Shown: positions 1,190-43,054, counted from the first letter of the whole stretch. The stretch is 63,995 nt of DNA, filler included, from Fonticula-like sp. SCN 57-25 (GCA_001724245.1; 6 parts of 6 records of this genome joined end to end with filler, not necessarily neighbours in it); one strand, 5' to 3'. The notes: generated from the letters alone by a model not told the origin. Numbers and translations are program-made.

Positions 1190-4100
1190 ATGTTGGAGGG
1201 AGTGGTTTCCACTCTCCTCAACAAGGTATTAGGAGAGTTTGTAGACGATGTACAAGCCAGCCAGCTTGATATTGGCATTTGGAAAGGTGCGCATGGCGCC
1301 GCGGAAGTGATCCCGAGGTTAACGAACGCGGGGTGGCAGGTGACATTGTGCTGGAGAACCTCTCGCTCAAGGAAAATGCGCTTCGCAAGTTTGACCTTCC
1401 CATTGACGTGACGTATGGGTACCTGGGCAAGCTTGTTGTGCGCATTCCGTGGTCGAACCTCATGAGGGATCCCGTCCACATTGTGATCGACCGCCTCTAC
1501 GCGGTGGCCACGCCTCAGTTTGGCAGCGATGTACGCATGCCGACCCTATTTGCCATCTTCTGACTTTCTGTACGCTAGTATGACGCCTCGAAAGAAGCAG
1601 AGACCGCTTACCAGGCAAAGGAGAAGGCGCTTGCTGCGTTTGAGGCCTCTCGCAAGAAGGTGGCCGCCGAGCAGACCGAGTCTGGTGGCGGCGACTTTGT
1701 GGCGCGGCTGGTCGCCAAGCTCGTGGATAATCTGCAGCTGACGATCCAAAAAGTGCACGTCCGGTATGAGGACGCCGTGAGCCACGCGCAGGGGACGCTC
1801 GCATTGGGCGTTATTCTGGACGGCCTCACGGTGAAGACGATCCCCGGCGACGAAGAAACGGCGACGGCCGGCGTCGCCTTCAAGCAGCTCACGCTGAGCA
1901 ACCTCTCAGTGTACTGGGAAGACGAGTCTTTTTCAGCTGCGCGCAGCGCCGAAGCAATGGCGCCGCAAAACTTTTCGGCGAACGACACCCGTGAGCATAT
2001 TCTGCTGCCCACCGGCGCCGACGTCAAGGTACGCAGACCTTTTTTTCTCATTGCTTCTAACGCAGGCATAGTTGCGACTCGACACGTCTCGCCTGCCCGG
2101 CAAAAACTCGCCGCAAGTTGACTTGCAGGTCGACCTAGAAAAGCTCGCGCTGCAGCTGGATGACGCCCAGTTCCGCCAGCTGCTCGACGTTCTCAGCACA
2201 TTCAGCTCGTTCCAGCGCGGCGTCGTCTACCGTCACCTGCGCCCGCCTCGCCAAATGCTGATGCAGGGGAGCTCTGGCCGCTACCGGCAGTACTGGCGCT
2301 TTGCAAGTGCGCATTCTATTTGTTGGTTTTATTTATTCTAACGCGGCTGTTTTGCAGTTGACGTCGCTCTCTGGCAGGCGCGCCGCAAGCTTCACCCGTG
2401 GGCATGGAGCAACATCAAGCAGTGCTGCGACGACCGCCATACGTATATCGCCACCTTTAAGGCTGTAACGATTGGCGGAAAAAGCGCGACGGCTGACCAA
2501 AAGCTGGCGCTGGAGCGCCTTGAGCGCCGCCTTGACTTTGCCGACCTGTGCTTTTACCGCACCATTGCGCACGCCGAGATGAAGCGCGACCGCCAGGGCC
2601 CCGAGCACCAGACGACGCTCGGCTGGCTGACGAGCTGGATGGGATCCGCCGCGCCGGCCAACGCGACCATCAGCGACGAAGAGCGGCGAAAGCTCAACGA
2701 GTCGATCGGGTTTGACGGCGCTCGCAAGACGGTTGTCTATGCCCGCGATGTGCGTTTTGCTTTGCAGTTTGCGTATTTTGCTGACATTTTTGCGTCACAG
2801 TATGTGCGCTTCCGTGTTGGCGCCAATCTCAGCGGCGTGCAACTCTTGCTACGTCGCAAGGGCAAGTCGCAGACGAGCGATGTGGTACGACTACTCTCAT
2901 TATTTTGCACGATTTTGACTTTTTGTATAGGTTTCCCTCGGCATCAGCGGCGTTGGCGCGAATGTGTCGATTCGCCCCTCGTCTCTTGTGGTCAGCGCCT
3001 CCCTTGACGCTATTATCCTTGATGACCACGTCACCACGCGCGGCACCGCCGTTCCCATGATTGAGCGGACGGGCGACAAGGAGGGCAAGCTCCTCACGCT
3101 GTTCTTTGAGCAGGGCCCGCTGGACAAGCACGCCGATATTCAGGTGGACCTTGACCTGCAGCCTATTGTCGTGCGCTTCAAGCCGGCGCCCATCAAGACC
3201 ATTCTTCGTGCCTTTAAGCCGCCGGAGGACCGCGAGCTCAAGGAGCTGCAAAAGGCCGTTGCTCGCCGTCTGCTCTTCTTTACCGAGCAGACGCGCATCG
3301 GTCTGCAGCACAAGCTCACGACGCACACGACGCTCGATCTCAAGGTGAACATCAACGCTCCCGCCGTGATCATCCCGCACGAGCAGGGCACCATTGGTAT
3401 CGACCTTGGTCAGTTCACGGTCAAGTCCGAGCTGGTCGACCCGGCTCGCCGCGCCGCCGTGCTTGCAACGACCAGGCGGCTCGACGAATCGGAGATGCAA
3501 GAGCTAAAGTGCGATTTGTTTCTCTTGCTGCCTTGAAGCTTACGTTTTATGCAGGTCGTTCATGTATGACCGCTTTGATATCGGCGTTTGGTCGCTTCAA
3601 GTTGTCATTTGCGAGGACGAGGCGCAGTGCTTTAGGGACATGGCTGGACACAAGACTATGCCTTCGCACCTTCTTTGCCCGGCTGTGCTGGTGCGTTTCA
3701 TTTTCTGCTCTCTGCCTTTCTGACCACTTTTTCAGGACGTCACAATTGAGCAGTGCATTGTGGACCACGCCGCTGGCTTCCACTCGATGCGCGTCAGCGT
3801 CATTGTGGAGACCATTCACGTGGTCGCAACGAACCCGAAGCTCCGCTCTCTGCTCGCGGCGGTCGACGGCATCGTCGAGGCCGTGACGCCTGCGCCGAGC
3901 GCGGCCGATCGCCCGACGCCCCGCATTACCGTCGTCCCTGAGCTCGAGTACGCGACTTCCCTTGACGACATTGTCGGCGACCGCAGCAAGGAGCTCTTGA
4001 ATGTGTCCGAGTCGCAGCTGGTGTCGATGAGCGACGACAGCGTGGATGACGACGAGATTGAGTGGTTTGACGCGCTTGAGACGCAGCCGGTCGAGCCGGT

Positions 4101-7100
4101 TCCTTTCCACAACCACGTCACGCTGCTGGCCGAGCTCTCTGTTGTGGGCATCTGCCTCACGGCGGGGACGCAGGCGTCGCTCGTGTCCCCGATCGTCGAC
4201 CAGGTGGCCGCTGCGATTGATGCGCTGGAGGCGAACTTTTGCCAGCGGCTCGATGGCATGTCGGCCGCGGTGTCGATCAGGGCCGTGGACGTTGCTGCCG
4301 TCAGCGACAGCGTGAGGCGCACCATCGTCGCGCTCAACGATAGTACGGCCAATGTTCTTGTTGATCAGTATTCGCTCACGCAATTTTGCAGAGGAGGGAG
4401 ACTCGATCAAGGTTTCCTTTGCCCAGAGCGTTGCATCCGACGAGTCGGTTGCGCGCGAGTTGGGCGCCATTATTGGGATGGTCGTGCTCGATGCGGAGCC
4501 CGAGGTCGTCATGGGTCTGGTGGTGGACGCGCTTGCCATTGTCGATCTTCCAAAGTCGTCCGGCGCAGAGGAGGCGACCATCACCGAGATGCCCGACGAG
4601 GAGCACTTTGATGACGCCGACGAGTCCTTCGAGTCCGTGTCGGTGCTGGACACGAGCACGACGAGCGAGCTGGCGTCGCCCAAGGTGTCTGCTACGCTGC
4701 TCGTCGACGTCAAGCTCGGCGGCGTTCAGCTCAACTGCAAGCACTTTGACTCGCAGGTGGCCCAGATTGTCCTTGGCCACACGTCTGCGACCGTGCAGGT
4801 GAGCGACCAGTTGATGGTCGTGGAGGCGTCGGCGGGGCCGCTCGGCCTCGAGGCTGGGTCCGAGCGCGTCATGTTTACCGAGGAGAAGCACATTGCCACG
4901 CTGCTGTTCAGGCAGACAAAGGGATTGGCGCCGGACGCCTTCGTGCAGCTGCGCACCGCGCCGTTGGTGCTGAGCGTTTCGCCGCCGTCCGTCAATGCAC
5001 TCGCTTCATACGGTTTTGCGTACGTTTATGTGAATTTGCTATTTTGTTTGTTAATCATTTGCGTAGGTTTGGCGCGGCTGCGAGCACGCTGCCGTCCAAG
5101 AAGCCCGCCACCACCGCCGCCGTGGCTGCTCCCGCTCCTACGCCGGTCAGCGTCGAACCGGCTGTGCCGTTCCGCTTTGACCTTCACATTATGGCGCCGC
5201 GTTTCCACATCAACCGGACGTCGGCGGGCCAGCTTGCCGACATTCTGGTCGTCGACCTTGGCGAGCTGTCCGTTTCAAACGTCATTCACCAGGCCGACGA
5301 CGACGTCTCTTCCATCGACAGTGCGTATCTTTTTTTATATTTTCTACTTTACTGAATAGGTCCAATAGGCATTACGCTGGCTCTCAAGCGCGCCCACGTG
5401 CTGTCCCGCGTCGAGGCTGCCGACATGTCTGTTGTCGAGCGCACTCTCTTTGAAGAGTTTGCCGTTGACGCGACGATCGACCGCTCGCTTTCGGACACGT
5501 ACTTTGGCGTCCCCAAAATGGAGATTGGCGCGACGGTCCTTCCCGCCAAGATGTCGATCGCCGACACGGACCTTCTTCTGATCCTCTCGACGGTCGACGC
5601 GTTCATGTCGGCGCTGCCCAAGCCGCCCCGCTCGGCCGCCACCCCGGCGCATTCCAGCGCGCCCGCGGCCGTCGCCCCCGCGCCGGTCGTCAGGCCGCGC
5701 CATCACATGCTCGACCTGTCGCTCAACATCAGCGACATTTCGATTGCCTTTGCGCATGTCTCGGCGTACCCCATCGTGCTGTCCGAGAACCGGCCTGCGC
5801 GCAATGAGCTCCTGCTTGCCGCCAAGGGTTACGAAGTGATCCCCGTCAGCGCGATTACGATTTCATCGACGACGGTGCGCATGGCCAGCCGCGCCGACAC
5901 GTCGTCCGATATCGAGGTGACCGTCGCGGCCGTCACCATTGATGCCGCCAAGCGGTGCGTTTTTTTACGCGTTTTTTGGAAACCTTTTGCTGACTATGAT
6001 TCTAGGGAGACCTCGAACGCGCACAATCTGCCGCTGCTTCGGACGGGCGTCCTTAACGCGCGCGTCTCGCGCCAGTCGACCGGCGAGACGGCTATTTCCG
6101 TCCAGGTGGACAGCCCACACGTGACCGCCGATGTCGGAGCGTGGCTCGCTACCGCCGAGATTGCGCTTCTTCCGCTCGCCGACGCGCACCGGTCGGACTC
6201 TGTCAAGCCGTCGTCGTCGCCGGCGCTTCCGCCGATCAAGGATGCGGGCGCCGAAGCGCCAAAGGAAGACGGTCCGGGCATGACTATTGGCGTGCACATT
6301 GCCAACGTTCGTGTTGCCATTGTGCACCCCAAGGCGTCGGACTATGTCGAGCTCGTCGTCCCGCGCGTCGTCGTTGGCCTTTCATCAACGCCCGGCGCCG
6401 ACAGCATCACGGTCGATGTCGTCGATACGGTACTGCAGCGCTCTGCGTCGGACGCGCCGTCCACGACCATTTTGGTGCGCTCTTTTCCCTACTGTTGTCC
6501 TTTTCTAACGATATTTAAGGCCCCGGTGACGCTCGGCGTCAAGCTTGATACGCAGCGCGGCGAAGAAAAGTCGACCACGATTGTTGTTGACCTGATGATG
6601 CTCGACCTTGTCTTCCCCTTCTCGACCCTTTTGCTTCTTCAGCAGAGCGGCGAGCACATTACGAGCGCCACGAGCACGTCCGCCTTTTTGAACGCCTCCC
6701 TGCGCGCCCCGCCGGTCACCGAGTCGGAGGAAGAGGATATTGACATTCTCGCAAAGTCAGCGATCGAGTCGGCCGGACTCGACGACGGCTCTTCAATGAT
6801 GTCGATCACGAGCAGCAGCAGCGAGGCGTCGCTTCCGACCATCTCGTCACAGTCGCTCTCCCTGGCAAAGCCGCTGCGCAACGAGTCGCTCAAGGTCAGG
6901 CTAAAGGGCCTTTCGCTGCGCGTTCTCAATGACGCGCTCGAGACGCGCGTCCCGCTGCTCGACGTATCGCTCCCACCGTCCTCGATTTCTGTGAACGAAT
7001 GGTCGGGGTCGCTCGCCTTCAAGGCGCACTTTGCGCTGATTGTGAACCTCTACGATGCCGAGCGCGCCGCATGGGTGCCTGTCCTTGAAAAGTGGACGTG

Positions 7101-10100
7101 CTCGATTGGTGTTTCGCGCGCGGGCTCCAAGGGCGGTATGACAATCGACTTTGAAACGCCCACCCGCTTTGAGCTCGTGTTTGCATCGCACTACATGCAC
7201 GTGCTGCTCGAGGCCGCGTCGTCGTACTCGTCGCTCTCCATCAGGCCCGACAAGCTGCTCACCGAGTACTGCCCGTACCGCATCACAAACTCAACTGGCG
7301 CGCCGGTGCGCGTCTGGCTGTCGGACGGCCGCAAGGTGCAAGAGACGCAGGCGCCCGAGTCGGCTATTCTTGTCAAGGACGGCGACTGCGTTCCGTTCTC
7401 CGTCGACGCCGTACGCGCACATTTTTTGATAATTTTTTGATATTTTGAGTCTAATTTTGACTTGCAGAGCTCGTGGCTCATGGTCGCTGTTGGCGACTCG
7501 TTAGTGTCGGGTCGCGCCGTGGACGTTTCCAATCTTGGCGTCTGGACGACGCGGCTGGTGCCAGGCGTCAATGACGCGCACATGCTCCTCAAGGTGGACG
7601 TGCGGTACACCAACAGCGCGCGGATGATTACGCTGCGGTCTACTATGCTTGTCCGCAACTGCACGGACTTTCCGCTGCACGCGATCTGCGCGCTCGACGA
7701 GCAGCGGTTCCAAAAGGAGCTGCCGGTCGGCGGCGAGGTCGCCATTCCGATCGACTTTCAGCTCGATGGCTTCTTTTCGATCGTCACGAACGGTGCGCTA
7801 CTTTTTGTGTTGTTTGCCTTACTGAACTATCGGTTATAGATGATCAGCATGATGCCAGCGGTCCGTACGCGATGGCCGCGCTGCGCCGCCTCGTCAAGAA
7901 GGAGCACAAGGACCCCGTGGACGTGCTCCGCTGCCGCAAGAAGGCCTCTGCCCCCTCTGATGCGCGCGACTTTTGCGCCCAGGTTGGCGTTTACGTCGAA
8001 AACAACACGTTCGTCGTCGTGCTTCTCCCGCCGCTCACGATCGAAAACGCACTGCCGATCCCGCTGTGCTTTGACCTCATCGACAAGGCGGCGGGCCGGT
8101 CGATCACGACCGCCGTTATCGAGCCGTGCGGCTCCATGCGCTGCTACGACGACTCGCTGGTGACCAAGGTGCACATGAACATTTCGCTGCCCGAGGTTGG
8201 GTTCGCCACCAAGAAGCCGCTGCGCATTGTGCACCCGAGCAATGAAAAGGAGCGGTTGGTGTCGGACCTTGTGCCGCTCGTCACGAGTGGCTCGGACGAG
8301 ACGCTCTCCATTTGCATGAACAATTCGCTGAATGAGCACTGGAAGGGCGGCCGCCACGTTGTCTTTTTCGCGCAGTACCTGATGGTGGACCGCTCTGGCC
8401 TTGGCCTGTACTTTAAGAGCACCGGCCGGATCCCGAGCAATGCCTTTTCCTCGGACAAGCTCCCCTCGCAGTCGTCCAAGATTGCCGCCTTCCCGCCGGA
8501 GTCGGGCTGCCCCGTCACGCTCTTTGCGTCCAGCAAGCTCGAGCGCCTTGCCTCGGTTCGCACCAAGGACTCTAACTGGAGCAAGGCCTTTTCGATTGAG
8601 GCGACCGGCACGCACGGCGAGATGACGCTGACTGTCCCCAAGTCGACCACGCGTTACCAGCTTGGCATTGCCATCACGGTCGGCAGCGGCGCTTATCACC
8701 GCTCAAAGGTGATCACGTACGCGCCGCGCCACGTGCTCGTGAGCAACTGTGACTTGCCGCTGCAGTTCCTCCCGCAGCCGGACGAGCGCAACACGGCAGT
8801 CGACAAGATCGCCGCCGTGGGGCAGAACATGAAGAGCCTTGCCATGACGGCCGTCTCCACGTTGCAAGCCTCGCAAGCCATTGTTTCCGAGCAGAGCTCA
8901 ATGTCGGCGGCTGTTGCGGCGGACCCGCACCACCGCGTCATCAGCGTTGCGCCGCGTCAGCGCGCCGGGTGCCACCTCGACGAGCGCGAGTCGACGCTGA
9001 GCGTTCGCTTGGGCGACTCTGGCGAGTGGTCCTCCCCTTTCAGGGTCGTCGACGTCGGCGAGTCCTTTGTGGTCGTGACGCACCCGACGACTGGCAGGCG
9101 CGTTGTGCTGCGCGTTGACGTTGAGCTCGAGGGGTCTATTATGTTTATCAAGGTGTTTATCTACCGCGGCGAGCCGCCGTACCGCCTCGCGAACCACTCT
9201 TCGATCCCGATCTCTTTCCTTCAGCACGGCGGCCGCATCACGTACGAGGCGCTGCCGGGCGAGTCTGTCCCGTTCGTGTGGGAGGACCCGCTCAGCACCG
9301 AGCACGAAATCATCCTGCTCAGCGGGACGTTCCAGCGTCGCGTGGACCTCCGCACGATCGGCTCGTCGCGGTCGTTTGAGGTGAACGACAAGGGCCGCAT
9401 GAAGGTGACCGTCGCGCCCGAGAGCATCACGACGGTGGTGCACCTGCGGCCGGGTGCCAAGAAGCGAGGCTTTGGCGGGCGCTTCATGGACTCGGCGTCG
9501 GCGTTCAAGATCCCCGCCGTCAACCGCCTCAAGGGCGTGAAGAGCAAGTCCTCATCGACGACGTCGATTGGCTCGGGCGTCGACGCGGCGTCGGCGCTCG
9601 AGGATGAGGTCGAGGACGCACAGGAAGGCGCAGAGGGCGTCATGGCCGTCAAGATGGCCAAGTTTACGCACCTCAGGCTGAACGCGCGCATCGCCGGTTT
9701 GGGTCTCAGCATTATTAGCGAAAAGATGAAGGAGCTGCTGTACCTCAGCGTGCAGGACGTCAAGCTAAACTACTCGGACTCGGACATTGACAGGAACGTC
9801 GTGCTCACCGTGGAGAACTTGCAGATTGACGACACGTCGAGCGACGCCAATTTCCCCGTCGTGCTCTACCAGGCCGTGCCCAAGGAAAAGTCGGCGCCGG
9901 CGGTCAAGCTCGAGGAGATTGACACGTCGGGCATGACGGAGCAGGAGGCCGCGGCGGTCAAGCAGATCGCGGCCAATGCGCAGAGCGGCAAGCGGCCGTT
10001 CGTGCACTTTGCCATGCGAAACATCAAGCAACGCGCCAATCACGTGGTTGTCTTCCAGAGCTTTTCGCTCCTCTTGCAGGAGATTTTCATCGACGTTTCC

Positions 10101-11742
10101 GAAAAGTGCGCATTTTTTCGCGGCCTTTTATATTAACTAAACGTGTCTTTCAGGCTTTTGTTCCGCGTGCTCCGCCTTGTGAGCGCGACCTTCCCCGTCG
10201 GCAAGCCCGTCAACTCGATTGGCGAGGCGTCCGCGGCCGTTCCGTCGCCGCACACGCAGGACGCGCCGTCCACGCGCGTTTACTTTGGCGTGTTTGAGCT
10301 GCAGCCCATCCTTCTCAAGCTCACCTTTATGCACTCCAAGGAGGCTGGCGAAATGGTACGCGATAAAGTCATTTGTGAGGTGGGTCTAATGCTTGAATAG
10401 AACCCGGACAGCTTTGATGTGTTTGCGGTCGTGTTTGAGACGATGACGTCAGCCGTCGGCAACATTGACGGCGCACCGATCAAGCTCAATGGTACGCTAT
10501 AAAGTAGCGATTATAATGACCACTAACGGATTTTCTCCAATCAGCGCTCGAGATTCGCAACCTGAATGCGACGCAAAACGTGCTTGTTTCTCTGATTGTC
10601 AAGCACTATGTATCGCAGGGTATTCAGCAGGTTCACATGCTCCTCGGCTCGGCCGACCTTCTCGGCAACCCCGTCGGCCTCTTCACCGGCATCTCCACCG
10701 GCGTGACCGACTTTTTCTACGAGCCAATCAACGGCCTCGCGCGCGGCCCCGAGGACTTTGCCAAGGGCCTCGGCGTCGGCACGGCGTCGTTGTTGAAGGG
10801 CGTCGGGTTTGGCGTGCTCAACACGGCCACAAAGTTCACCGGCGCTGTCGGGTCGGGTCTCGCGCAAGTCACCATGGACGATAGCTACCAGGCCGAGCGC
10901 CAGGGTACGAAATTGAAAGTAAAGGATGTGTTTTTGCTGACATGTTGTAGCTGCTCGTGTGAGCGCGCGAGGTAACAATGCGACTCAGGGCGCCGTCGCC
11001 GGCATCACGTCGTTTGGCAAGGGCATCGGCAGCGGCCTCTTGGGCGTCGTCAAGAAGCCCGTCGAGGGCGGTACGCATCCACATGGCCACTTTCTTTTTG
11101 CTGATTTCGTGCTTTGCAGCCAAGTCTGGCGGCGTTGCTGGCTTTATGGGCGGCGTTGCCAAGGGCGGCCTCGGCCTCGTGGCCAAGCCCGTCGTTGGCC
11201 TCATTGACGCAACGTCTCACATTGCGCAGGGCATCCGCAACCAGGCCACTGACCACCGCGTGGCGATGCGCGTGCGCCTGCCGCGCCACATCCAGCGCAG
11301 CGGCGTCATCACACCGTTCTCGGCGCGCGAGGCGCTCGGCATGAGCATGATGCTTTCGATCGACCACGCGAAGCTGTACAGCTGGACGTATGTCGCGCAC
11401 ATTGAGGTGACGAGCCACAACACGATTCTGCTCATTGCGTTCGAGGGCGTCGCTATGGTCGACCCGTCAAAGGACGACGTCCTGTGGTCGGTGCCTTTTG
11501 TCGCGCTCGCCCACGTGTCAGAACAGCCGTACGCGCCGCTTTTTTGGATTATTTACCATACTGACTATATATTCTTTAGGTCTGGCTTTGCGCTCACCGA
11601 AAAGCACCCGAATGCGCTGCGGTCGCGCGAGCACTTTGTCGAGATCAAGGAGGAGGGCACGAGAAAGTCCGCCATCAAGACGATCAGCGAGACGCAGATC
11701 GATTGGGAAGCCGTCACGGCCGGCATGGAGTTTACCCTCTAA
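1190..11742 (+). CDS. VPS13: Vacuolar protein sorting 13 family bridge-like lipid transfer protein (about 22 exons)
   Basis: Chorein_N start MLEGVVSTLLNKVLGEFV..LDIGIWKG; VAB region (NWSKAFSIE, VITYAPRHVLVSN, PPYRLANHS); C-terminal LLGSADLLGNPVGLF..GVTDFFYEP, Gly-rich ATG_C and PH-like end. 21 short GT-AG introns join the ORF pieces. Confidence 0.95.
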
Positions 11743-14551: not shown

Positions 14552-16334
14552 TCAGCTTGCAGCGACCGCCACCGGCTCCTTTTCCGCGGTAGCCTCCGTC
14601 GGCTCCGCCTCGCCAGCGTCCATGTCGACGTCATCGCCCGCCGGCTCCTTGTCGGCCTCGACCTTGATCGGCGGCGTATCAATCGGGCTCGGCGCGGCGC
14701 GCGGCTCGTCCACGACTATTGACGGGAGCTTGTGCGCGCTCGCCTTTGTCTTTGCAATGTTGTCCATCACCGTGCGGCTACCGGGTGCATTAGTGTGGCA
14801 CACCACTTTTTGGTTTTAGCGAGGCGTACCAGCATATGCTGAGGTAGGACCGCGTGTTGCAATCGTCCTGCAAGACGGGGTGGACGGGGAGCGCAAAGTG
14901 CGGCCCGTAGTACTCAAAGTAGTCGTGGTACGGGATGGCGGTCGGCAGCGTGACGCCGAGCAGCTGCGCGGTCGCGACGGTCCATAGCCGCGCGGCGTTG
15001 GCCGAGGATGACATGCCGCCGCCCAGCAGCAGCATCGGCACCTTGGTGCTCTGCAGCGTCCGCAGGCACGCCATGTAGCCGTCCAGCGTCAGATTAAAGC
15101 TGCCAAAGCGGTCGCCGGCAAGGGCGCCGGACGCCATGCGGAACACAATCGCCGTCGGCTTAAAGTGTGACATCACTTCCTCCATAATCTGAAAAAATAA
15201 GCCGAAAAAGGTCAGAAAAGACGTCAAAAAGGCGTATAAAAGATATCAAAAAGCGCACCGGCTCAAAGACGGCCACCAAGGCGTCGTCCGAGAGGCCCGT
15301 GAGGAGCGGGCAATTTACCGCGTAATTCTGGCCCTTGCCGTATCCAATATCCTGCGCAGGGCGTTAAACACAATGAACCACGTGGGCGTGACGTACGCGA
15401 ATGTCGCCGGTGCCGGGAAAGTGGTCTGTGAATTGCTGGTGGAACGAGAGCGTCATGACGCGGTCGGTGGTATAAAAGGCCTCCTCGACGGCATCGCAGT
15501 GCAGCGAGTCGAGGTTGACGTAAAGAACGCGCTCAAAATATCTGCCAATCAAGTTAGAACAAAAAGCAAATAAAGGCCGAAAGTGCGCACTTTAGGAGCT
15601 CCAGGATGCCCAATACGACATCGTTGATGTAGCCGGTTCCTGATGCGGAGCTCTTCATCGCATGCTGGAAGCCGCCGAGCCAGTTGATGGCGACATCTGC
15701 TTCGCCCTTGCCGAGACGAGCAGCGCCCGCTACGAGGAACCGTAAGCAATGGAAAGGGATCGTGAGGGCGGGGCTTACCGAGCGTGCCTCCGGTGTACAT
15801 CTGGCTAAACTCGTAGACGCCATCGAAAGGCGGGTTGTCGCCATCCTCCTCCACATTGACTATTCCAAAAGCGTTAGAACTCATACTACCGCCACGCGGT
15901 GCAGAGGCGCACAGTAGCGGGAAAGAAGGCCGTTGTCGGCGGGCGGCGTTGGCGACAGCGATGCGAGGTAGCGCACGTAGTCGTCCGTGTGAAACTTTGT
16001 GAGATCCATAAAGCCAGGCCTCACATAGTCCTTCTGCAAGGGCACAGCGGCGGGTCAGCCATGCTGCACGGAAAGAAGCGAGTCTGGCGTACGCAAACTG
16101 AAAGCCGCGAGAGCATCTCGTACTGCGTGAGGAGCGAGTGCGTGAGCATGGCGCGGTGTGCCTGCGAGGGATGGCCGCGGCCCATCGAGTACGCGCTCGC
16201 ATCCGCTATTCGCCATCAGTTAGACAAGCAAATTTAACACCCTGCGGTCAGCGCGCACCATCGTAAAAGTACCACGTGCGCGGCGTCGGCTGTCCCACCA
16301 CCTTGCCTGCATCGCCGTTCGCCATCGTTCCCAT
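14552..16334 (-). CDS. Class I (Rpd3/HDAC1-like) histone deacetylase homologue, predicted catalytically inactive
   Basis: Spliced exons give [92 protein letters not shown]; about 8 GT-AG introns. Confidence 0.9.
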
Positions 16335-16480: not shown

Positions 16481-17123
16481 ATGGACGTGATCAACAAGAT
16501 TACCGAGTCGGCGAGCGACTGCACGAGCACTGTGCTCTCGTGGTTTGACGAGGAGACCGTGGGCCGCGAGGTCGCCGCTCGCAACAAGTGGGTGGCGATC
16601 GCCGCCGGTGTTGGCGCCGCCTACATTGCACTTCGCTTGGCGGCCAGCTCCCAGCGCGTGCGTCATATGGGTTGCAAAGGGGATCTTTCTTATGTTTCTT
16701 TTATATTTTTAGAGCCGCTTCCAGGGCCGCCGCGCCGCCGAGCACGTTGAAAAGGTCAAGATCCAGATCTCGCCCGAGAACCTCGCGTATCTTAAAAAGT
16801 ATGCTGCCGTCTACCAGCGCGATGTTTCCTCTACGCTCCAGTTTGCGTTGGACTATGTGATCATCGAGCTCAAGCTCACCGCCGAGCAGGCCAAGGCTGC
16901 TTCGAGCACCGTCGGCGAGGCGCAGGTCGTCGCGACGGAGACGAGCATTGTCCTTTCGCAGCTGCGCTGGCTGACGCGCCTCTTTGACTCTGACGATGTC
17001 AGCGCCGCCGTCAACAAGGCCCTCATCGTGGCGCAGCGCGGCGACGCCTCGCAGGTCTTTGGCATCGACCGCACGCCCTACCGCGAGCAGGAGGACCACA
17101 CCCGCTTCCACCTCAAGTCGTAA
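16481..17123 (+). CDS. Hypothetical protein with one hydrophobic segment and two ribbon-helix-helix-like motifs
   Basis: Two exons joined by a GTGCGT..TAG intron (about 16658-16712); strong GC3 codon bias; hydrophobic WVAIAAGVGAAYIAL. Confidence 0.7.
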
Positions 17124-17274: not shown

Positions 17275-19908
17275 TCACTTGATCTCAATATTGAGAATTT
17301 TGATATCATCATACGGCTTGTCGTTCTTGTCCACGCGCGCGCGGCCAATAGAGTCGACCACGTCCATGCCGCTCGAGCAGCGCCCGAAAATCGTGTGCTT
17401 GTTGTCCAGCCACGGCTACAGAAACGGCCACGTGAGCAATATAAGTCAAATGGCGGGAAAAGAAGCGCACAGTGGGAACAAGCGTGACAAAGAATTGCGA
17501 CCCGTTCGTGTTTGGCCCGGCATTGGCCATCGATACCGTGTACGGGCGGTCGTGCCTGAACAATATGTAAGCAACATATTGTAGGAAATTAATAAAAAAG
17601 AGGCGCCAAAAGAAGGCAAAAAGTATCAAAAAGAGCCGCTGCGCACCTCAGATTGCGATGAAACTCGTCAGCAAACTCCTTGTTCCAGATGGACGTCCCG
17701 CCCGTGCCATCGCCTAATCCAAGTTAGTCCCAACAAAAGTCACGTGCCAATACGCACCGAAAGGGTCGCCCGTCTGGATCATAAACCCACGAATAACCCG
17801 ATGGAAAATATGGTTATTATAATACCCATTCCTCGCGTGCGTAATAAAGTTCTCCACCGCGAGCGGCGCCGACTCTGGAAACAACTTTACCGTAATATCG
17901 CCCGCCGTCGTATAAATCACCGCCGTCGTCATCACCTCCTTCTTGACCGTCTCGGTCACGAGCGTCTGCTCCTCGCGCGTCGGCTTTTCGTTAAACACGT
18001 CGCGGTTGCCGCCGGCGCCTTCCTCTTCGGCGTCGCCGGGGTCGCGCCGCGTGATCATGAAGAAGCGGTTGCGCTTGAAGGAGGAGCAGAAGAGAGTGGG
18101 GTCGGCTTCTTCGGCATTGCGCAGGTTCGGGTTGTCGCTCGCAGCCATTTCCTGGAGGAAATTGTTACTAAAAAAGGAAGGCAAAAAGACGGCAAAAAAG
18201 AGGCAAAATGGCGCACGAGGGTCTGGGCGGTCTTGGAGCGGAGGACGCCTTGGTAGAGGGCGACGTTGAGGAAGCGCTGAGAGGATTCGAGGGAGCCGAG
18301 TATTGACACGACCTTGTTCGTGCGAATATTCACAACTGGATAATGTGTTAGAAAGTGCAAATTGGTGGTAAAGAGTGGCAAAATTGTGGCAAAAATGGCA
18401 TTTTTGTGACATTTTGGCACTTTTCATGTCATTTTTGGCACTTTTTCCTTCTTTTCCCCAACTTTTCCCGCTCTTTTCCCTTCCCTTTTTCGTACCTTTG
18501 ATGCCAAGAAGTGTCGCGTAGAGAATAAAATTCCCCGAATCATCAAACACGGCGTTCGCCGCCTCCTTATAGTCCGACTTGTCAAGCTCGCGCTCGACCG
18601 CCAGCCTGCGCCCAAAGTCCATTGACTCGAGCTTGACAAACGCCGTGCCCGCCTGCTGCATTTCAGACTGCACTGCGAGCGTCTCGTCGTACACGCGGTA
18701 CAGCTTGCCGGTGGCAAAGGTGAAGACGCGCACCTTGCGGTCAGAGGACATGGTCACAAAGAGGTCGCCTTTTTTGTTGAACGACATCGAGAAAACATAC
18801 GTCTTGTTCTGTGAAAAAGTGTAAGGAAAATGAATAGGCAGAGATGAAAAGAAATGAAGAGGAAAAGAAAAGAAAACGAGCGAAAAACATATCGAGGGAG
18901 TCAAAAAATATTAAAAACGTATCAGAAAACACAACATACCATAATATCTGAAACATTAAAATGCACTAAAATACACTGAAATGCATTAAAATACACCAAA
19001 ATGCACAATAATGCACCATTATACACCATAACACATCACTCCTCCCTCCATATTACACCCTTCATACCTTGCCAAACTCGTAGAGGTCCGTATCGAGCTT
19101 TGACTCGAATGCAACGCTCGTCGGCAGCTCCAGCGTGAGCGGGTCCCAGTACTCGACCATACCGCGCGCGTCTGCGCTGACGACCGTGCCGTACACCTCG
19201 TTGAACTTTATGGCGGTGACGGGCGCCGGGTGACCCGAAAAGGTGCGCAGCGGCGTCGGCTGCGCATCGCGCGCGTCGTAAATGTGAATGTCGGGCGTCT
19301 CCTGCGACGAGATGGCGAGGAGCGCCTGGGCGTCGCCGCGCGAGAGCACCCACGCGCACGCGCGCGGCACGTAGTCGAGCTTGAGCATGTTGATGGCGTC
19401 AAAGTTGACCACGTCAAACACCTTGATGTACTTGTCCGAGCTCACGGTGACAAAGAGCTGCCCGTCGGCGCTCGCGTCGGCGCACGAAATGGCCTCGAGG
19501 TGCGCGCGGTACGTCTTGACAAATTCGATGCCCGTCTTGCCTTTCTTCCAAAACTTGACAAAGCCATCCGCGCTGCAGGTGATCACAAAGTCGGTCGATG
19601 TCACAACGACATGCGTGACAACATCGCGGTGCATGTAGCTTTTCTCGTACATGCCGGCCGACGGCAGCGCCGCGACAAACAGCCTCTCGTGCTCGAGCAC
19701 TACAATACCGGAAAATCCCTGGTTAGCGCGTCCGCCGAGCCATGGCGCGCATCGTACCTCGACGCTTCTTTGGCGCCTCGCTCGGCGCCTCTGGCATCGG
19801 CCCGACATCGTCGTCGTCGCTTTCCTCCTCCACGTGCGCCGTGCGCTTCTCCTCTACCTTCTCACCGCCGCCGATCTCCTCCAGCTCGTCGTGGCCGCGC
19901 TTTGACAT
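17275..19908 (-). CDS. PPWD1: WD40 + cyclophilin spliceosomal protein (PPWD1/Cyp15)
   Basis: [28 protein letters not shown]-like [55 protein letters not shown]; multi-exon. Confidence 0.96.
18958..19038. repeat. Degenerate ~10-bp tandem repeat (AAAATRCACY-like) inside a long PPWD1 intron
   Basis: aaaatgcact aaaatacact gaaatgcatt aaaatacacc aaaatgcaca ataatgcacc attatacacc. Confidence 0.7.
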
Positions 19909-20423: not shown

Positions 20424-21475
20424 ATGGCAGACACTGATGACGGCGGCGGCGACGTGCATTACAAGCGGTTCTTGTCGAATGATGTGTTAAAGCTGGGAAT
20501 TATTCGCCCTCTCGGCAGTGGCGCGTATGGCGTAGTGCACGAGGTGCGGCTTTTAGAGTCGGCCCTCGAGCATCTGCCGCCCGGCACCTACGCGCTCAAG
20601 GAGGTAAACTTTGACAAGGTGAGCGACCGAGAGAAGCGCGTCCTCGAGCGCGAGCTGGAGCTGCCGCTGAAAATACGCCACCGGCTCTTTTGTCAGTGTT
20701 TCTATTCATGGGTATGCGCGCGCCGCTCTCTTACCTTTGCTGCTGCTCACGCCCCGATAGCGAGACGGATCCGAAGGGTACCTCTTGATGGAGTTTGTGC
20801 AAGGATGCACGCTCGATGAGGTTCTGAAGCGCGGGCCAATGTCGGAAGAACGCGTTCGCTGGATTGCCAAGCAGCTGCGTACGCATACAGAATTGCGCTC
20901 GCGCAAGTTTTGCTAATCCCGCATCAGTTGTCGCCATCGATGTCCTCTATCTCGAGTACCAGATTCTGCACCGCGACATCAAGCCCAAGAACGTCATGAT
21001 TGTGGACGACGACGACAACCTCAAGCTGGTCGACTTTGGCTTTGCCATTGTGGAGGACGTTGCACAGACAGTGCTGGGAAGCGCGGGCTACCGCGCCCCC
21101 GAGCTCGTGCCCGGGCACAAGTACGGCTTCAAGGTGGACATTTACTCTGTCGGGATGACGCTTTTGAGCGCTCTGACGCAGACCCGCCCGCCACCCATTA
21201 ACCCGTCTCTGCACCCAGACTCGTTCCTGGACATGGTCGCCAACCTGCTGCGCAAGAAAGGGGCGTCCGAAGAGTGCGCCGGCTTCATCTGCGAGCTCGT
21301 CCACCCCGATGAGTCGCTGCGCAAGCTGGTCACGACGGCCCTTTCGCACAGTTTCATCAGGGCAGAGAAGCGCGCCGTTCCGTGGCTCGACGGCCAAGTG
21401 GACGTCGCGACGACCGACCGCGTGCTCAGCGAGGACGGGTGGGACTGCGTCTCCGACAGCGACATTCCCTTGTGA
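20424..21475 (+). CDS. Small Ser/Thr protein kinase (loosely Atg1/ULK- or CAMK-like)
   Basis: LGSGAYGVV, YALKEV, HRDIKPKN, DFG, GSAGYRAPE, DIYSVG; two short introns. Confidence 0.88.
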
Positions 21476-23725: not shown

Positions 23726-25800
23726 ATGAGCGGGACGCGCCTGTTTGACGCTGAGAAGGGCTACGGCAGCCTGGTACGCCCCCGATCGGGTCATCTGTCT
23801 ATGTGCTTATAGTGTGCATGTGGAATAGCCGAGTGGCGCTCCTCCTTCGACGCTCTCCCTTTCGTGGCATCACCTCAATGTTGTGGGTTATGATGAGGGC
23901 TCTGGCGGGGGCCGCTGCTTTGGCTCGCGCACCCCCAAGCTCGAGAAGCGCATCCTGAACGACATCTCTGGCGTTGCGCCTGGCGGCGAGCTGCTTGCCA
24001 TCATGGGCCCTTCCGGTGCGGGCAAGACGTCTCTTCTCGACGTGCTGGCCGGTCGCCAGCCGGGGTTCACAGGGTCGCTCGCGCTCAATGGCCAAGTGTG
24101 CACCGGCACGGTGGTCCGCGAGATGTCGGCGTACGTCATGCAGGACGACATGCTGTTGAACACGCTGACGCCGCACGAGTACATGACCTTTTCCGCGTCT
24201 CTGCGCTTGGCCCATCTCTCGGCCGCTCAGCGCGAGGAGCGCGTCCGTCTGCTCCTCGTGCGCATGCCCGTTGACTCACGTAAGCGCCGGATCTGCTGAC
24301 ACCTTGTGCTTGGTTACAGGGCCAATTGAACATTATGCGGTGCGCCAACACGCCCGTCGGTAATCTGAGCGGTGGCGAGCGCAAGCGCACGTCGATCGCG
24401 GTCGAGCTGATCGCGGATCCCCGCATCATGTTCATGGACGAGCCGACCTCTGGCCTGGACAGCTTCACGGCGCTGTCTGTGATGCGCATGGTGAAGCGCC
24501 TCGCGGAGGAGGGCCGCACGGTGGTGGCGACGATCCACCAGCCTTCGAACGAGATCGTGGCCGAGTTTAGCCGGCTGCATCTTCTCGCTCGCGGTCATAC
24601 GGTGTACAGCGGCCCGCCGAGCGGCGCCCTGACGCACTTTTCCAACCTCGGCTTCCCCTGCCCGAACTACACGAACCCCGCCGACTTTTTCATGCGCCTC
24701 CTGCAGGACGACGCCAAGGTGGGCGAGGCCGAGGAGGAGGAGAGCCCCGAGGCCAAGGAACGCAGGCACGCGCTGCCCGTCCTCATCAACTCGCCGTGCG
24801 AAGTTGGGAGCCCCTTCCCCGAGCCGTCGTACAATGACGCCGTGGTGCAGGACCTCCGCGAGGAGACGGAGCGCATGACGAAGCGCGCGAGCGGGCCCAA
24901 GGCCCTCGCCGTCGTGACGTGGAGAGAGTTCCTCAACTTTAGCAGGGAGCCGATGGCGCTGCGCGTCCGCGTCGGACAGAGCATCTTCATTGCCCTGCTC
25001 CTCGGTATCATCTACTTGCAGATCGGCAACTGGCAGTCGACCATCAAGGACCGCATCGGTGTCCTTTTCTGCCTGATGGCGTTTGCCGTCCTCGGCACCA
25101 TGACCAGCGTCGTTATGACTTGTACGCCGCCGTTGGCCTCGACCCTTTTTGATACTAACTTTCACAAACAGTCCCCCAGGAGCGCAAGCTGTTTTTGCGC
25201 GAGCACAGCAACGGCATGTACAGCGCGTGGACGTACTACTTGGCCAAGGTCGTGAGCGAAATCCCCTTTTTGATCCTGATTCCTATGATTCTCTCAGTGG
25301 TGGCGTACTACATGGTCGGCCTGTCGACGGTGGACCCTACGCGCTTTTGGGTCTTTGCACTTGCCATGATAGTGCTCACGTTTGCGGCGCACTCGTTCGG
25401 CCTCATGATTGGTACCGGCTTTAAGAACTCGGCGGCGGCCGTCTCAATGACGCCGCTCATCCTCACGCCTATGCTCCTCTTTGCGGGCTTCTTTGTCAAT
25501 ATGGAGAACGTGACGCCGGTCCTCGCGTGGCTGCAGTACCTTTCCTTCTTCAAGTACGGCCTCGAGGTCTTTAGCGTCAATGAGTTCCAGGATCTCGTGC
25601 TTGTGTGCCGCGATGACGAGCTCGTCGGGCCCATCTGCCCGATCACGTCGGGCGACCAGGTGATCGCAAGCATGGGCTACGACCCGGATGCCGTCTGGAC
25701 CGACTTGGGAATTTTGGCGGGCATGTGCCTCGCCGCGCACGTGCTCGCGTTCTGCTTTTTGTTCATGCAGACGCGCGGCCGCAAGGAGCGCGGCATCTAG
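23726..25800 (+). CDS. ABCG (White-type) half transporter
   Basis: Walker A GPSGAGKTS, LSGGERKR signature, MFMDEPTSGLD, TIHQP, then an ABC2 membrane domain; three introns. Confidence 0.95.
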
Positions 25801-25964: not shown

Positions 25965-27952
25965 CTAGAGCGGCGTTGTCGGCTCGGTCCAACTCCACTC
26001 GACGATAATGTCGCCTGCGCACGCGAGCGTTGCGACGCAGACCGTCTCCCTTTCCGGCACGTCGGCAACGATTGGGTTGGACGCGAGGCCGGCGGTGACA
26101 GGCCCCTCGACGTTGATCTCCACGCGCACCTTGGCCGCGCGCGTGTTGTGTATGAGAATGTCGATCGTCCCCCGCTCGCTTCCCGCCTTTTTAATGAGCC
26201 GCACTCCGTGGAGGACGGACGACTGCTCGGGGAGCGGTGGCGCGGCCGCCGACTGGAACTTCCAGCTCTGGGACACCGGCCCGCCGCACGTGATGCTGCC
26301 GATTGGGACGGCGGCGGTCGCGCCCGCCGGGACGACTCCCTTGACGGTGAACGGCGCCGTTAGGCCCGACGTCGTCACAGCGAGGTCATTGACCGCGATC
26401 ACGCTCCCCTCGACCGACACCTCGACCTCAACGGCGACCTGGTTCCGGTTGCTGGCAAAGAAGCTGATGACCGTCGGCGTGACGTTGTGCTGGATGCGCG
26501 TCTCGAGCGTGACGTTGTTGAGCTCGGAGCTGCGCACCTCGACGGCCGCCGGGCGCACCGACATGGATGAGCTGAACGACATTTCGCCGTCGGCCGCGAC
26601 CGACTTTACCGTCGCCAGCCAGCCGCTCGAGTGGCTCGCCACGACGCCCTCCAGCGCCTTGCCGCCATCGCTCACGACAACGTGGCTCACAGCGAGCGGG
26701 TCCGCGTGGCTCGAGCCCTCGTACTGCGCAATGACCGCGTTGGCGCTCTCGATCGAGATGCGCACCCGCACGGCGTACTCGCGGTTGTTCACCGCATGGT
26801 AGTGGTAGCTGCCGCCCTCCGACACGCGGCGCAGCTGAACATGGTCGAGCTCCTCGACGCGCGCCGACGCGAGCTTGGCCGACAGCGTCGACGAGGTCGG
26901 CGCAATCACCGACCCGCTGCCAACCGAGGGGGACTCCCAGCTGACAAGCGAAGTGGCCCGCCGGGGCGACTCGGGCGGCGCAATCGACATAGTCGAGCGA
27001 GCACTTCCTTCACTCGGGAATGCAGCAGCAGCAGCAGGAACAGCCGCGGCGGCAACGGCGACAGCAGCGGGAATAGCAGCAGCAGCAGCGTCCGGAATGT
27101 CGGGAAGGAGGCCGATGAGCGTGTCGACGATGCGAGCAAAGGTCGGCCTGAGCTCTGGCTCGTCGCTGACGCACTGGAGGACGAGGTCGACGAGGACGGG
27201 CGGGCATCCCGGCTGGATGAGGGAGCGGACCTCTGCGTCGTCGAGGCCAAAGCCCGGGATGACACGCTTAAAGTGCCGCGTGTCGGGCTTGACGCGCGAC
27301 AGCAGCTCGGCCAGCACCATGCCGTACGAAAACACGTCGATGAGCTCGGTGTAGTCGAGCGAAAGCATGATTTCCGGCGCCATCGTCCAGTCAGTGCCGC
27401 ACATGGTCATCGGCGCCTTGCTGTCCTGCGGGCGTGCAAAGCCAAAATCGCACACCTTTGCGGAAAAGTCGCTCGAAATGAGAATGTTTTCGCTCTTGAG
27501 ATCGCGGTGGATGATCCCGCGGCTGTGAAGGTACGCAACGGCCTTGGCCACGTCGAGCGCGATCTGGATGCGGGTGCGCCAGGGGAGCTCCTGGGCAATG
27601 TTGACCGCTCGAAGATCGCCATGGCCCTCGATAAACTCGGTCAGAATGTACATGCGCTTCTCCCGATCAATAGAGACTCCCATGAAGCGAACAATGTTGG
27701 GATGGCGCGCTTCACTGGAACAACAACCAGGTAAGCAAAAAGGGCGCATCAGGGAGAAGAAAGTGACGCGTACGAAAGCGTCGTCACCTCGCGCTCCCAG
27801 TACTTTTGAATGTCGGGCTCATCCCCCGCGTCCGTCAGTCGCTTGATCGCCACAGGCGTCCCAAACAACGAGCCGCGATGGACAACGCCAAAGTTTCCTC
27901 GGCCAATGATCTTGCCAAACTGCAGATCCTCAAACTTGACCGTCGAATTCAT
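25965..27952 (-). CDS. TKL kinase of the LISK (LIMK/TESK-like) family with a C-terminal triple beta-rich repeat
   Basis: IGRGNFGVV, VAIK, HPNIVRFMG, IIHRDLKSEN, DFGFAR, MTMCGTDWTMAPE; one intron near 27715-27773. Confidence 0.9.
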
Positions 27953-28309: not shown

Positions 28310-29770
28310 TCACTGCTGCTGCTCCCTTAATGAGCTTCCCGACCCGCCAAACGGCACAAACCCGACTGTCTTTCTGAGGCTCTCGTTCACCGCGCCGTTG
28401 CTCGGGGCAGCGACGGCGGCGGCCGCGGCGGCCGCGACGAGCGGCGGCGGCAGGCCAAACGCAAGCCGCCCTTCGGGCACGTGAATGGGAGCGGCGTCGC
28501 GCGGCACAAACACGGCGCGGACGCTGAGCGAGCGGGGCGACGCGCCGGGCTCGGTCGCGGGCGCCGCAGCCGCCTTTGACCGAGGGATAGGAACGCTCTG
28601 GGACGAGGAGGCCGATGCGGCGGACGGGCTGACGCCGAGAGAGTTGGCGTCGGCCGCGGGTGCGCGCGAGCGGCCACGAAGAGAGGCGCCGCCACCAGAA
28701 AACGGAACAAAGGAAGGCGTGGGCGGCGGCGCGTCGGCGTCGGCCGCGGCAGAAGCGCCAAGCTGGGGGCTCACACCAGAGGCACTGCTGGCGGGGGACC
28801 CCGTCACCGTCGACTGTGACACGCACAAATGTTAGAAATCAAACACGAGAAATCAGACACAAATGCATGTCAAGAGAAAAGAGTGGCACGCACCGATGCG
28901 GCGCTTGCCGGCCGGGTGGGTTCCTGGTATCCCGGCGGCGGCGCAAAGTCGACCTCGACGTCCGTCTCGATGACGCAAATCGCTCTCGCCGGCTTGCATT
29001 CGAGGACGTTGAATTGGTACGTTTTGGTATGGAAGAGGAGATTGACGCAGTCGCCTTCCGTCAGGCAGGCGTAGCTACGCAGGGCGCGCTCAAGCCTGTC
29101 GAGCGATGGTGAGCACACGTACTTAATCCAGAAAGGGAAAAAGATCAGGTCAGCAGCAAGAGAATGATATCAAGACTTAAGCCATCTTCTTTTCTTCGCT
29201 GCATTTCCCCCTTCATTCCGACGTACATTGTTCGCGGGTGATTTACGCTCAGGAATGATTCTGACGTCGGCTGAAGCTTGACAAAAGAGCCCGACGGCAT
29301 CTCGGCGCTGGTTAGCTTTACGATTGAATTTGCGCATCCGAGCTGCTCAATCATCCAGCCGGGAAGGTGAACTTTCCCTTCCTGGGCAGTGAACTCGATG
29401 ACACCGCAGTGCGTCGACTTGCCGTTGAATTCGACTCGGAAGAGCAGAGGGTACATGACGTTCAGGGCAGTCAGCTGCGCGAGCGCCGAAGGAGGAAGCA
29501 GAACTAAACAGACCAAAGCAAGTTAAATAGGCAATTAAAAGAACGAAAATACCAAAAAATAATGCACAATTCACAACGAAAAGAGGTTATAGTGTGCGCG
29601 CCCTCATCTCTCTCTAATGGTCCAAATGACGTACTCTTCCCACCATAGTCGAGCTCCATGTAGTTGGAGTTGCCCGAGTCTTTCATCGTGTTGCAGCGGA
29701 GCACGCGCTCAAACTGATCGGCGTCGCCGCCGTTGCTCGGCATACGGCCGTAGTGAAAACCCCCAAACAT
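28310..29770 (-). CDS. UFD1: Ubiquitin fusion degradation protein 1
   Basis: YGGK..LLPPSALAQL, YPLLF, THCGVIEFTAQEG, LERALRSYACLTEGD, IETDVEVDFAPPPGY; two SHP boxes (FVPFSGGG, FVPFGGSG). Confidence 0.94.
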
Positions 29771-35155: not shown

Positions 35156-35215
35156 ATTGTTGCATCAAAGAGGCATTATTGGAAACATGACCATATCAAA
35201 TGTCTATTGCTACAG

Positions 35216-40835: not shown

Positions 40836-43054
<2,219 letters not shown>

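Follow-up and report, generated by a model that had tools for sequence, protein, structure and literature searches.

Near-invariant GTRCG 5' splice sites in the introns of an uncultured protist that appears to group with Fonticula

The VPS13 gene at the start of a 64-kb stretch of DNA from Fonticula-like sp. SCN 57-25 raises an unusual question about splicing: every intron that can be placed in it begins GTGCG or GTACG (together GTRCG), with a C at the fourth intron position (+4). Is this a genuine donor consensus, does it belong to the organism, and what in the spliceosome would read it? The window, by which we mean the whole stretch, consists of six chunks of 7.5-12 kb each with N spacers between them (64 kb in all); its exons are GC-rich and its introns short and T-rich. 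We put at roughly 0.85 the probability that these are ordinary short GT-AG (U2-type) introns of an uncultured protist grouping with Fonticula alba, with the donor consensus G-U-R-C-G-(C/U, rarely G) starting at the exon boundary.

The initial annotation held that all 21 VPS13 introns start with GTGCG or GTACG, and this was borne out: GT[AG]CG stands at 21/21 of its coordinates (10 GTGCG, 11 GTACG), and splicing opens a frame of 3177 amino acids (aa) with no internal stop. With the nearest frame-keeping acceptor for each donor, the introns measure 43-57 nucleotides (nt); two acceptors are ambiguous, those of the introns at 5321 (5359 or 5368) and 7411 (7449 or 7467). The largest exon matches fungal VPS13 proteins at 20-24% identity, and the homologues carry VPS13 Pfam domains. 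Part of the gene recurs in a low-coverage metagenome contig of 1276 nt (L001), which is collinear with window positions 9588-10863 and 99.77% identical, with three differences, all exonic (9773, 10227 and 10825), and none in its three VPS13 introns. L001 thus derives from a near-identical strain. When metagenomes were scanned using the large exon of VPS13, it was the only contig returned, and the scan yielded no relatives and no added sequence.

Introns were placed with two procedures that ignore donor positions +3 to +6. An agnostic Viterbi parse used only GT..AG ends, the T-richness of introns and the codon usage of long VPS13 exons; a second agnostic parse covered the whole window. A homology ranking ordered all frame-compatible GT..AG introns at each junction by local BLOSUM62 comparison of the peptide that splicing would give, with scores summed over the references (11 distant VPS13, 12 PPWD1 and 16 Mob1-family representatives). 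A motif-informed model, with donor and acceptor matrices trained on 23 homology-supported introns, was then used to re-parse the window, and Pfam profile coordinates were compared on both sides of exon junctions as a test of continuity. Manual correction was applied to one ABC-transporter intron and to the 5' part of an HDAC-like gene. A Viterbi parse without the intron content model, which merged introns and called antisense genes, was dropped, and a strict pattern scan for GT...YTRAY...YAG proved too restrictive for use. The resulting catalogue comprises 67 introns from 16 genes; five of the six chunks are represented, the first by VPS13 introns only. It is divided into introns ranked first by homology (class A, n=26), homology near-ties (class A?, n=4), Pfam continuity (class B, n=11), by-hand reading (class C, n=4) and the motif-trained model only (class D, n=22). 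The VPS13 entries are listed below; the agnostic parse gives the same donor except where stated.

1190..11742 (+), VPS13 gene: 22 exons, 21 introns
1287..1339 (+), intron 1: GTGCGC, 53 nt, class A; absent from the agnostic parse
1531..1578 (+), intron 2: GTACGC, 48 nt, class A
2029..2071 (+), intron 3: GTACGC, 43 nt, class A
2307..2357 (+), intron 4: GTGCGC, 51 nt, class A
2750..2800 (+), intron 5: GTGCGT, 51 nt, class A
2885..2930 (+), intron 6: GTACGA, 46 nt, class A
3509..3554 (+), intron 7: GTGCGA, 46 nt, class A
3691..3735 (+), intron 8: GTGCGT, 45 nt, class A
4343..4391 (+), intron 9: GTACGG, 49 nt, class A
5020..5066 (+), intron 10: GTACGT, 47 nt, class A?, near-tie of 445 vs 448; GTCCG at 4987 in the agnostic parse
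5321..5368 (+), intron 11: GTGCGT, 48 nt, donor class A; acceptor possibly 5359
5955..6005 (+), intron 12: GTGCGT, 51 nt, class A
6475..6519 (+), intron 13: GTGCGC, 45 nt, class A?, near-tie
7411..7467 (+), intron 14: GTACGC, 57 nt, donor class A; acceptor possibly 7449
7793..7839 (+), intron 15: GTGCGC, 47 nt, class A?, outside the top two (409, 404)
10106..10153 (+), intron 16: GTGCGC, 48 nt, class A; identical in L001
10356..10400 (+), intron 17: GTACGC, 45 nt, class A?, 865 vs 876; identical in L001
10492..10544 (+), intron 18: GTACGC, 53 nt, class A; identical in L001
10905..10950 (+), intron 19: GTACGA, 46 nt, class A
11071..11119 (+), intron 20: GTACGC, 49 nt, class A
11529..11579 (+), intron 21: GTACGC, 51 nt, class A

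Placement that was blind to the motif nevertheless returned it. Of the 7105 GT sites on the window's two strands, 374 continue as GTGCG or GTACG, a chance level of 5.3%, compared with 40 of the 52 introns that the second agnostic parse placed in genes scoring at least 15 across the window. Several of its 12 non-GTRCG introns are parse errors according to homology (PPWD1, Mob1). The first agnostic parse recovered 19/21 VPS13 donors; the donor at 1287 was lost to a later start codon, and that at 5020 was swapped for a GTCCG 33 nt upstream. The homology ranking placed the annotated donor on top at 17/21 VPS13 junctions, and its first choices were GTATGA, GTACGA, GTGCGC, GTGCGT, GTGCGC and GTGCGC at the six testable junctions of PPWD1, and GTACGC (by a small margin), GTGCGT and GTACGT at the three of the Mob1-like gene. 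In total, a GTRCG donor came first at 25 of 30 junctions, as against 3.95 expected under random ranking, from a field of 296 distinct frame-compatible GT donors of which 34 were GTRCG. At the 26 junctions that homology resolved, 25 of the first-ranked donors have C at +4. Pfam profile positions continue without a gap over 11 further junctions, all of them GTRCG (HDAC-like, ABCG, two kinase, UFD1, DEAD, NUBPL, Mob1 and Spb1 genes).

Across the catalogue, 64/67 donors are GTRCG, as had been proposed for the other contigs 'with few exceptions', and the consensus would seem to belong to the organism, not to VPS13 alone. This figure is biased upward because the class D introns come from the motif-trained model; the least biased figure is the 25/26 at homology-resolved junctions. 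Position by position (n=67), +3 is A in 38, G in 28 and T in 1; +4 is C in 65, A in 1 and T in 1; +5 is G in 67/67; and +6 is C in 37, T in 19, A in 9 and G in 2, with GTACGC (20/67) and GTGCGC (16/67) among the commonest hexamers. C at +4 and G at +5 are no less fixed than the GU itself, and the exon side and positions from +7 onward are almost information-free (at most 0.14 bits at +7 to +11). Only GT..AG candidates were considered, so that the 67/67 GT-AG ends are partly by construction. Intron interiors are 0.175 A, 0.212 C, 0.217 G and 0.396 T, and base composition therefore leaves +4C (and +6C) unexplained. The hexamers usual in eukaryotes are rare on both strands of the window (GTAAGT 4, GTGAGT 15), and none lies at a modelled donor.

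The three exceptions are GTATGA, GTAAGC and GTTCGT. Two of them, GTATGA in PPWD1 at 19067 (-) and GTAAGC in the HDAC-like gene at 15778 (-), had been flagged beforehand and are supported by homology and by frame reading, respectively; GTTCGT in the ATG2-like gene (22305) is present as described, but in the motif-informed model only. A fourth, a GTAGGC donor in SUZ12, finds no support: there were zero SUZ12/VEFS Pfam matches in the open reading frames (ORFs) tested, and the GTAGGC at 31401 (-) overlaps an acceptor, TTGTAG followed by GC, in the model of a DEAD-box helicase. Other features that the initial annotation had listed needed adjustment. Exonic -1 and -2 were said to be unconserved, but -1 is weakly conserved, being G in 34/67. 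A length of about 45-60 nt suits VPS13; outside that gene, 21/67 introns exceed 60 nt, and the catalogue has a median of 53 nt and a range of 43-259. CTAAC or CTGAC near the acceptor occurs in its strict form in 24/67 introns; when the motif is relaxed to YTRAY, 48/67 have it no more than 45 nt from the acceptor, the median distance between the branch A and the 3' end being 14 nt.

By class, these introns look U2-type, with GT-AG ends, a restored frame that matches homologues, YTRAY near a YAG acceptor, and C or T at acceptor position -3 in 66/67. The U12-type 5' consensus is RTATCCTT, and GTATCC or ATATCC was found in 0/67 donor hexamers. A majority of C at position 4 together with +5G (65/67 and 67/67) is the mark of a +4C lineage. 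The alternation of A and U at +4 associated with METTL16 and SNRNP27K was not seen, +4A and +4U each occurring in 1/67.

The pentamer alone does not make a donor. The modelled coding sequence, 30,621 nt in all, has 68 non-donor copies of GTRCG on its sense strand, compared with 60.5 +/- 5.6 in 500 synonymous-codon shuffles, of which 464 gave a count no higher than that observed; depletion of exonic GTRCG, as selection against cryptic donors would produce, was therefore not seen in these exons. These decoys differ from real donors in what follows them. G at +6 occurs in 1/59 real donors and 19/68 decoys, the median T fraction at +9 to +40 is 0.38 in real donors and 0.19 in decoys, and the fraction is at least 0.30 in 41/59 and 4/68, respectively. 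A donor thus all but requires GTRCG, yet the pentamer falls far short of sufficing, because about as many copies sit unspliced in sense-strand exons, and since the decoys differ downstream, we infer that a donor is chosen together with the sequence that follows it. The donor would be read jointly with the next ~45-60 nt, comprising a T-rich interior and, some 14 nt away from a YAG acceptor, a YTRAY branch site; avoidance of G at +6 would be part of the choice. Such joint recognition of donor and intron body would amount to intron definition.

To place the organism, we turned to the window's coronin gene, which is intronless. Its best named match is Fonticula alba, at 61% identity, with environmental sequences at 63-69% and early fungi at 50-57%. 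In a maximum-likelihood tree of coronin (n=33), the window sequence falls with Fonticula and 14 environmental sequences (support 100/99), apart from the fungi; this is a single-gene tree with fungi as the farthest outgroup and an arbitrary root. The organism thus appears to group with Fonticula alba. The possibility that it is Thecamonas trahens itself was considered and rejected: no Thecamonas protein was among the 120 matches listed in either homology search, the database has no spliced, annotated protein nearly identical to the window's, and the coronin tree joins the window to Fonticula. The public database carries only single-ORF calls for the window genes, with a PPWD1 of 357 aa as against 633 aa in our spliced model, and, wherever introns occur, its publicly deposited proteins seem to be fragments. 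Single-ORF calls were checked at 17717-18910 (-) and 38927-40312 (-), and were seen on 4 contigs, each of at most about 14 kb. Protein calls confined to single ORFs, together with the near-identical metagenome contig, therefore indicate an unannotated, uncultured organism. Gene finders for it will need a +4C donor model.

A +4C consensus is already known from three described lineages, to which this Fonticula-clade organism adds another case. Mastigamoeba balamuthi has GUGCGC donors and a U1 in which ACGUAC replaces ACUUAC, Thecamonas trahens prefers C at position 4 with a standard U1, and five Mamiellales have 'GYGCGY' donors, also with a standard U1 (Roy & Bowser, bioRxiv 10.1101/2022.06.08.495308); for Ostreococcus, introns outside chromosome 2 had been described as having an "atypical consensus GTGCGTG" (Irimia & Roy 2008, PMC2483917). 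Two further systems bear on the question. Entamoeba combines GUUUGU donors with a U1 of AACAAAC (Roy & Bowser, bioRxiv 10.1101/2022.06.08.495308), and in yeasts switches between A and U at +4 are tied to METTL16 and SNRNP27K against a background of unvarying U1 and U6 (Parker et al. 2023 eLife, PMC10581693).

None of these matches the present case throughout. M. balamuthi shares the +3 purine, +4C, +5G and +6C, is fairly intron-rich, and has a +6C that its U1 leaves unmatched; it is, however, an unrelated archamoeba with mostly G at +3, compared with A 38 and G 28 here, and its U1 is known, whereas a U1 for the Fonticula-clade organism can be proposed by analogy only. Mamiellales (Ostreococcus, Micromonas) share +4C/+5G, a GC-rich genome and strong ACTGAC-type branch sites near the acceptor, but have intron-poor genomes, G and T as the fixed bases at +3 and +6, and a standard U1. 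T. trahens, of a sister lineage to opisthokonts, is phylogenetically the nearest described +4C case, and branch-site motifs are common in it, but +4C is described there merely as a preference. Entamoeba is alike in its near-invariant atypical donors and is a model for co-evolution of splice sites and small nuclear RNAs (snRNAs), but has U at +3 and +4 and an intron-poor genome. In Saccharomycotina, variation is likewise focused on +4, which lies opposite position 5 of U1 and, in the ACAGA box of U6, the central A, but the switch there is between A and U. The 30.6 kb of coding sequence in the window's models contains 61 introns, about 2 per kb. What is unusual against these precedents is the strictness of the intron-poor cases combined with ~2 introns per kb; among them, M. 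balamuthi alone is described as comparably intron-rich. The initial annotation had also stated that GTRCG occurs in basidiomycetes, for which we found no support in the limited literature collection searched; nor did that collection contain a paper using GTRCG, GTRCGT, GTRCGY or GURCG or, in its main texts, a published statement on the donor sites of Fonticula or nucleariids.

These comparisons give the window its interest. Strict atypical 5' splice sites are mostly known from intron-poor lineages, and the question of whether snRNAs follow introns has had a handful of test cases so far (Roy & Bowser, bioRxiv 10.1101/2022.06.08.495308). Here is a new case close to fungi and animals, in which a donor among the strictest known (+4C in 65/67) coincides with high intron density (21 introns in VPS13).

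What, then, might read the +4C? The initial annotation proposed a compensatory change in U1 or U6, or an altered dependence on METTL16/SNRNP27K. As usual, positions +1, +2, +3 and +5 would base-pair first with U1 and then with the ACAGA box of U6. We give about even odds to an arrangement in which U1 (ACUUAC) and U6 (ACAGAGA) are standard and +4C, lacking a Watson-Crick partner, owes its preference to proteins (U1C, PRP8 or SNRNP27K) or to modification state (the presence or loss of METTL16-dependent N6-methyladenosine, m6A), as must hold in Thecamonas and Mamiellales. Two of the three published +4C lineages, T. trahens and the five Mamiellales, keep a standard U1, and among 230 Saccharomycotina +4 has switched while U1 ACUUACC and U6 ACAGA stayed invariant (PMC10581693). 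The near-equal A and G at +3 and the G at -1 in half of the introns are likewise compatible with partial pairing between the donor and a standard U1. Against this, +4C equals the invariant positions in strictness, which a direct base pair would explain more easily, and the published link to METTL16 and SNRNP27K concerns the choice between A and U at +4 rather than C. Neither METTL16 nor SNRNP27K was among the window genes in Pfam scans. If U1 is standard, C at +4 would be enforced by something besides base pairing.

Somewhat less probable, in our view, is a co-evolved U1 with a G opposite +4 (ACGUAC type), which would form a continuous helix with GURCG as in Mastigamoeba. The GUGCGC preferred by M. 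balamuthi is among the commonest hexamers here, and its ACGUAC-type U1 leaves +6C uncompensated; a purine at +3 would suit a U in the adjacent position of U1, as an A-U or G.U pair, and the exceptional GTATGA has a +4U that could wobble with G. The other supported exception, GTAAGC, has a +4A that would be mismatched to G, and compensation is described in only 1/3 published +4C lineages. No U1 match was found in the window, where Rfam returned zero RNA families at gathering thresholds and zero snRNA at E<=5. Four weak Rfam matches at E<=5 (miRNA-like, CRISPR-DR, isrG) lay far below their thresholds and were regarded as chance. By analogy with Mastigamoeba, we suggest tentatively, and with a little less confidence again, that an ACGUAC-type U1 evolved independently here to match a near-invariant GURCG in an intron-rich genome. 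If so, this would be the second unrelated instance of co-evolution between splice sites and U1 after Archamoebae, one not attributable to prior intron loss; a changed U1 would mean that co-evolution is possible without such loss.

A changed U6, with G opposite +4 in the ACAGAGA box or with other changes, seems very unlikely: the central A of ACAGA is altered in Cyanidioschyzon merolae, as mentioned in PMC10581693, but the box was invariant in 240/240 species surveyed there, and Entamoeba, as described, keeps it despite very atypical donors.

Several points weigh against our overall reading. At the VPS13 junctions 5020, 6475, 7793 and 10356, which lie in poorly conserved stretches, homology gave near-ties; the 11 Pfam-checked junctions had originally been proposed by the motif-trained model or by hand; and 22/67 introns rest on the motif-trained model only. 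The counts cover 64 kb in six chunks rather than a genome, about 12 kb of it (34387-38900 and 45456-53000) is without a usable gene model, so that exceptions there would escape, and all junctions were placed from genomic sequence, not transcripts. The snRNA readings are weighted from precedent in other lineages. The least probable alternative of all, that GTRCG is an artefact of choosing among GT sites or of GC- and CpG-rich composition, could appeal to the frequency of the pentamer in the window (5.3% of GT sites, 68 exonic copies) and to the 22 model-derived introns, but is scarcely credible given that motif-blind placement still yields 25/30 and 40/52, that intron interiors (21% C, 40% T) would predict T at +4, and that the VPS13 frame closes only with the listed introns.

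The genes and introns beyond VPS13 are as follows, with Pfam profile positions on the two sides of a junction separated by a slash.

4-930 (-), PX-domain gene (Pfam PX, E 2e-17), upstream of VPS13 in head-to-head orientation
14555..16325 (-), HDAC-like gene: 8 introns, open 447-aa frame, 5' part read by hand; Hist_deacetyl profile continues over three junctions (135/141, 186/188, 217/219)
16258, 16092, 15912, 15590, 15396, 15258, 14829 (-), HDAC-like GTRCG donors; the fourth site, 15778, is GTAAGC
15730..15778 (-), HDAC-like exception intron: GTAAGC, 49 nt; the frame requires this intron, and zero GTRCG lie within reach
16658..16712 (+), intron of an unlabelled gene (16481-17121): GTGCGT, 55 nt, from donor-agnostic parses
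17278..19908 (-), PPWD1 gene: 7 introns, WD40 and cyclophilin Pfam matches
19757 GTACGA, 19067 GTATGA, 18495 GTACGA, 18216 GTGCGC (-), PPWD1 donors; 19757 from the motif-informed model only
17757 GTGCGT, 17646 GTGCGC, 17470 GTGCGC (-), further PPWD1 donors, homology-ranked
18809..19067 (-), PPWD1 exception intron: GTATGA, 259 nt, the longest catalogued; homology 1489 vs 604 with the other donor, only 2 distinct donors being possible at this junction
20879..20927 (+), intron of a protein-kinase gene: GTACGC, 49 nt, agnostic parse; downstream exon matches Pkinase profile 110-263
22118-22161 GTGCGC, 22305-22415 GTTCGT (exception), 22666-22717 GTACGC (+), introns of the ATG2-like gene, motif-informed model only; weak ATG2_CAD match just upstream
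23726..25798 (+), ABCG-type transporter gene: introns 23774-23828 GTACGC, 24258-24319 GTGCGC, 25122-25171 GTACGC; ABC_tran and ABC2_membrane positions continue over the last two junctions
27715..27773 (-), intron of a protein-kinase gene (27952-25968): GTACGC, 59 nt; Pkinase positions 50(+2)/54
28313..29743 (-), UFD1 gene: introns 29634-29504 GTACGT, 29226-29096 GTACGT, 28893-28814 GTGCGT; UFD1_N2 positions 21/24 continue over the middle junction, the other two introns from the motif-informed model
30078..31497 (-), DEAD-box helicase gene: introns 31486-31398 GTGCGT, 31354-31278 GTACGT, 31043-30987 GTACGC, all three given by donor-agnostic parses; DEAD profile continues over the last junction
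40839..43054 (-), AGC-type kinase gene: introns 42966-42748 GTACGC, 42604-42540 GTACGC, 41915-41759 GTACGA, 41383-41229 GTACGA; Pkinase positions 69/71 over 41915-41759, other introns from gene models
43776..43990 (+), intron of a cytidylyltransferase gene: GTACGT, 215 nt, motif-informed model only; Pfam match for the gene
53113..53977 (-), Mob1-like gene: introns 53954-53858 GTACGC, 53696-53648 GTGCGT, 53422-53346 GTACGT; Mob1 positions 28/30, first junction with a weak margin in the homology ranking
57361..58353 (+), NUBPL/ParA-type gene: introns 57686-57737 GTGCGC (ParA positions 60/64), 58221-58270 GTACGA (motif-informed model)
58487..59394 (+), unlabelled gene: introns 58515-58585 GTGCGC, 58643-58695 GTACGC, 58827-58878 GTACGT, motif-informed model only
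60961..61149 (-), Spb1 intron: GTGCGT, 189 nt, agnostic parse; Spb1_C profile begins at the start of exon 2
63339..63654 (+), low-scoring unlabelled gene: introns 63339-63396 GTGCGG, 63606-63654 GTACGC, motif-informed model only, weak gene score

The GTATGA intron of PPWD1 is the only homology-proven exception and also the longest intron; it is 32% GC, and an adjoining intron measures 160 nt. Near these long introns, Rfam at E<=5 gave only a miRNA-like match at 18367-18479 (28 bits against a threshold of 80). The HDAC-like gene surfaced through Pfam; class I HDAC motifs that were searched for had zero matches in the window. Class I HDAC enzymes carry a conserved catalytic histidine pair. The HDAC-like protein has a weak per-exon Hist_deacetyl match, and its model deviates at the expected position of that pair; it may be a catalytically altered paralogue. 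The kinase gene at 25968-27952 (-) contains 14 sense-strand GTRCG in 1926 nt of modelled exon sequence, several-fold the density of other genes, which could reflect unmodelled in-frame introns or plain composition.

Two stretches stand apart from the otherwise compact genes. The unusually gene-poor 34387-38900 (~4.5 kb) has zero frames with a positive coding score on either strand and zero Pfam matches in its four longest ORFs, and in 45456-53000 (~7.5 kb, 51% GC) neither codon model yields a gene. A codon model from low-GC genes rescued zero gene models in either stretch, and a position weight matrix scan of the model-less stretches gave scattered, unconvincing sites. Within 45456-53000, the ORF at 45728-46792 matches NOL1/NOP2/Sun methyltransferases (E 7e-24); this stretch holds either genes of strongly deviating codon usage or decaying genes.

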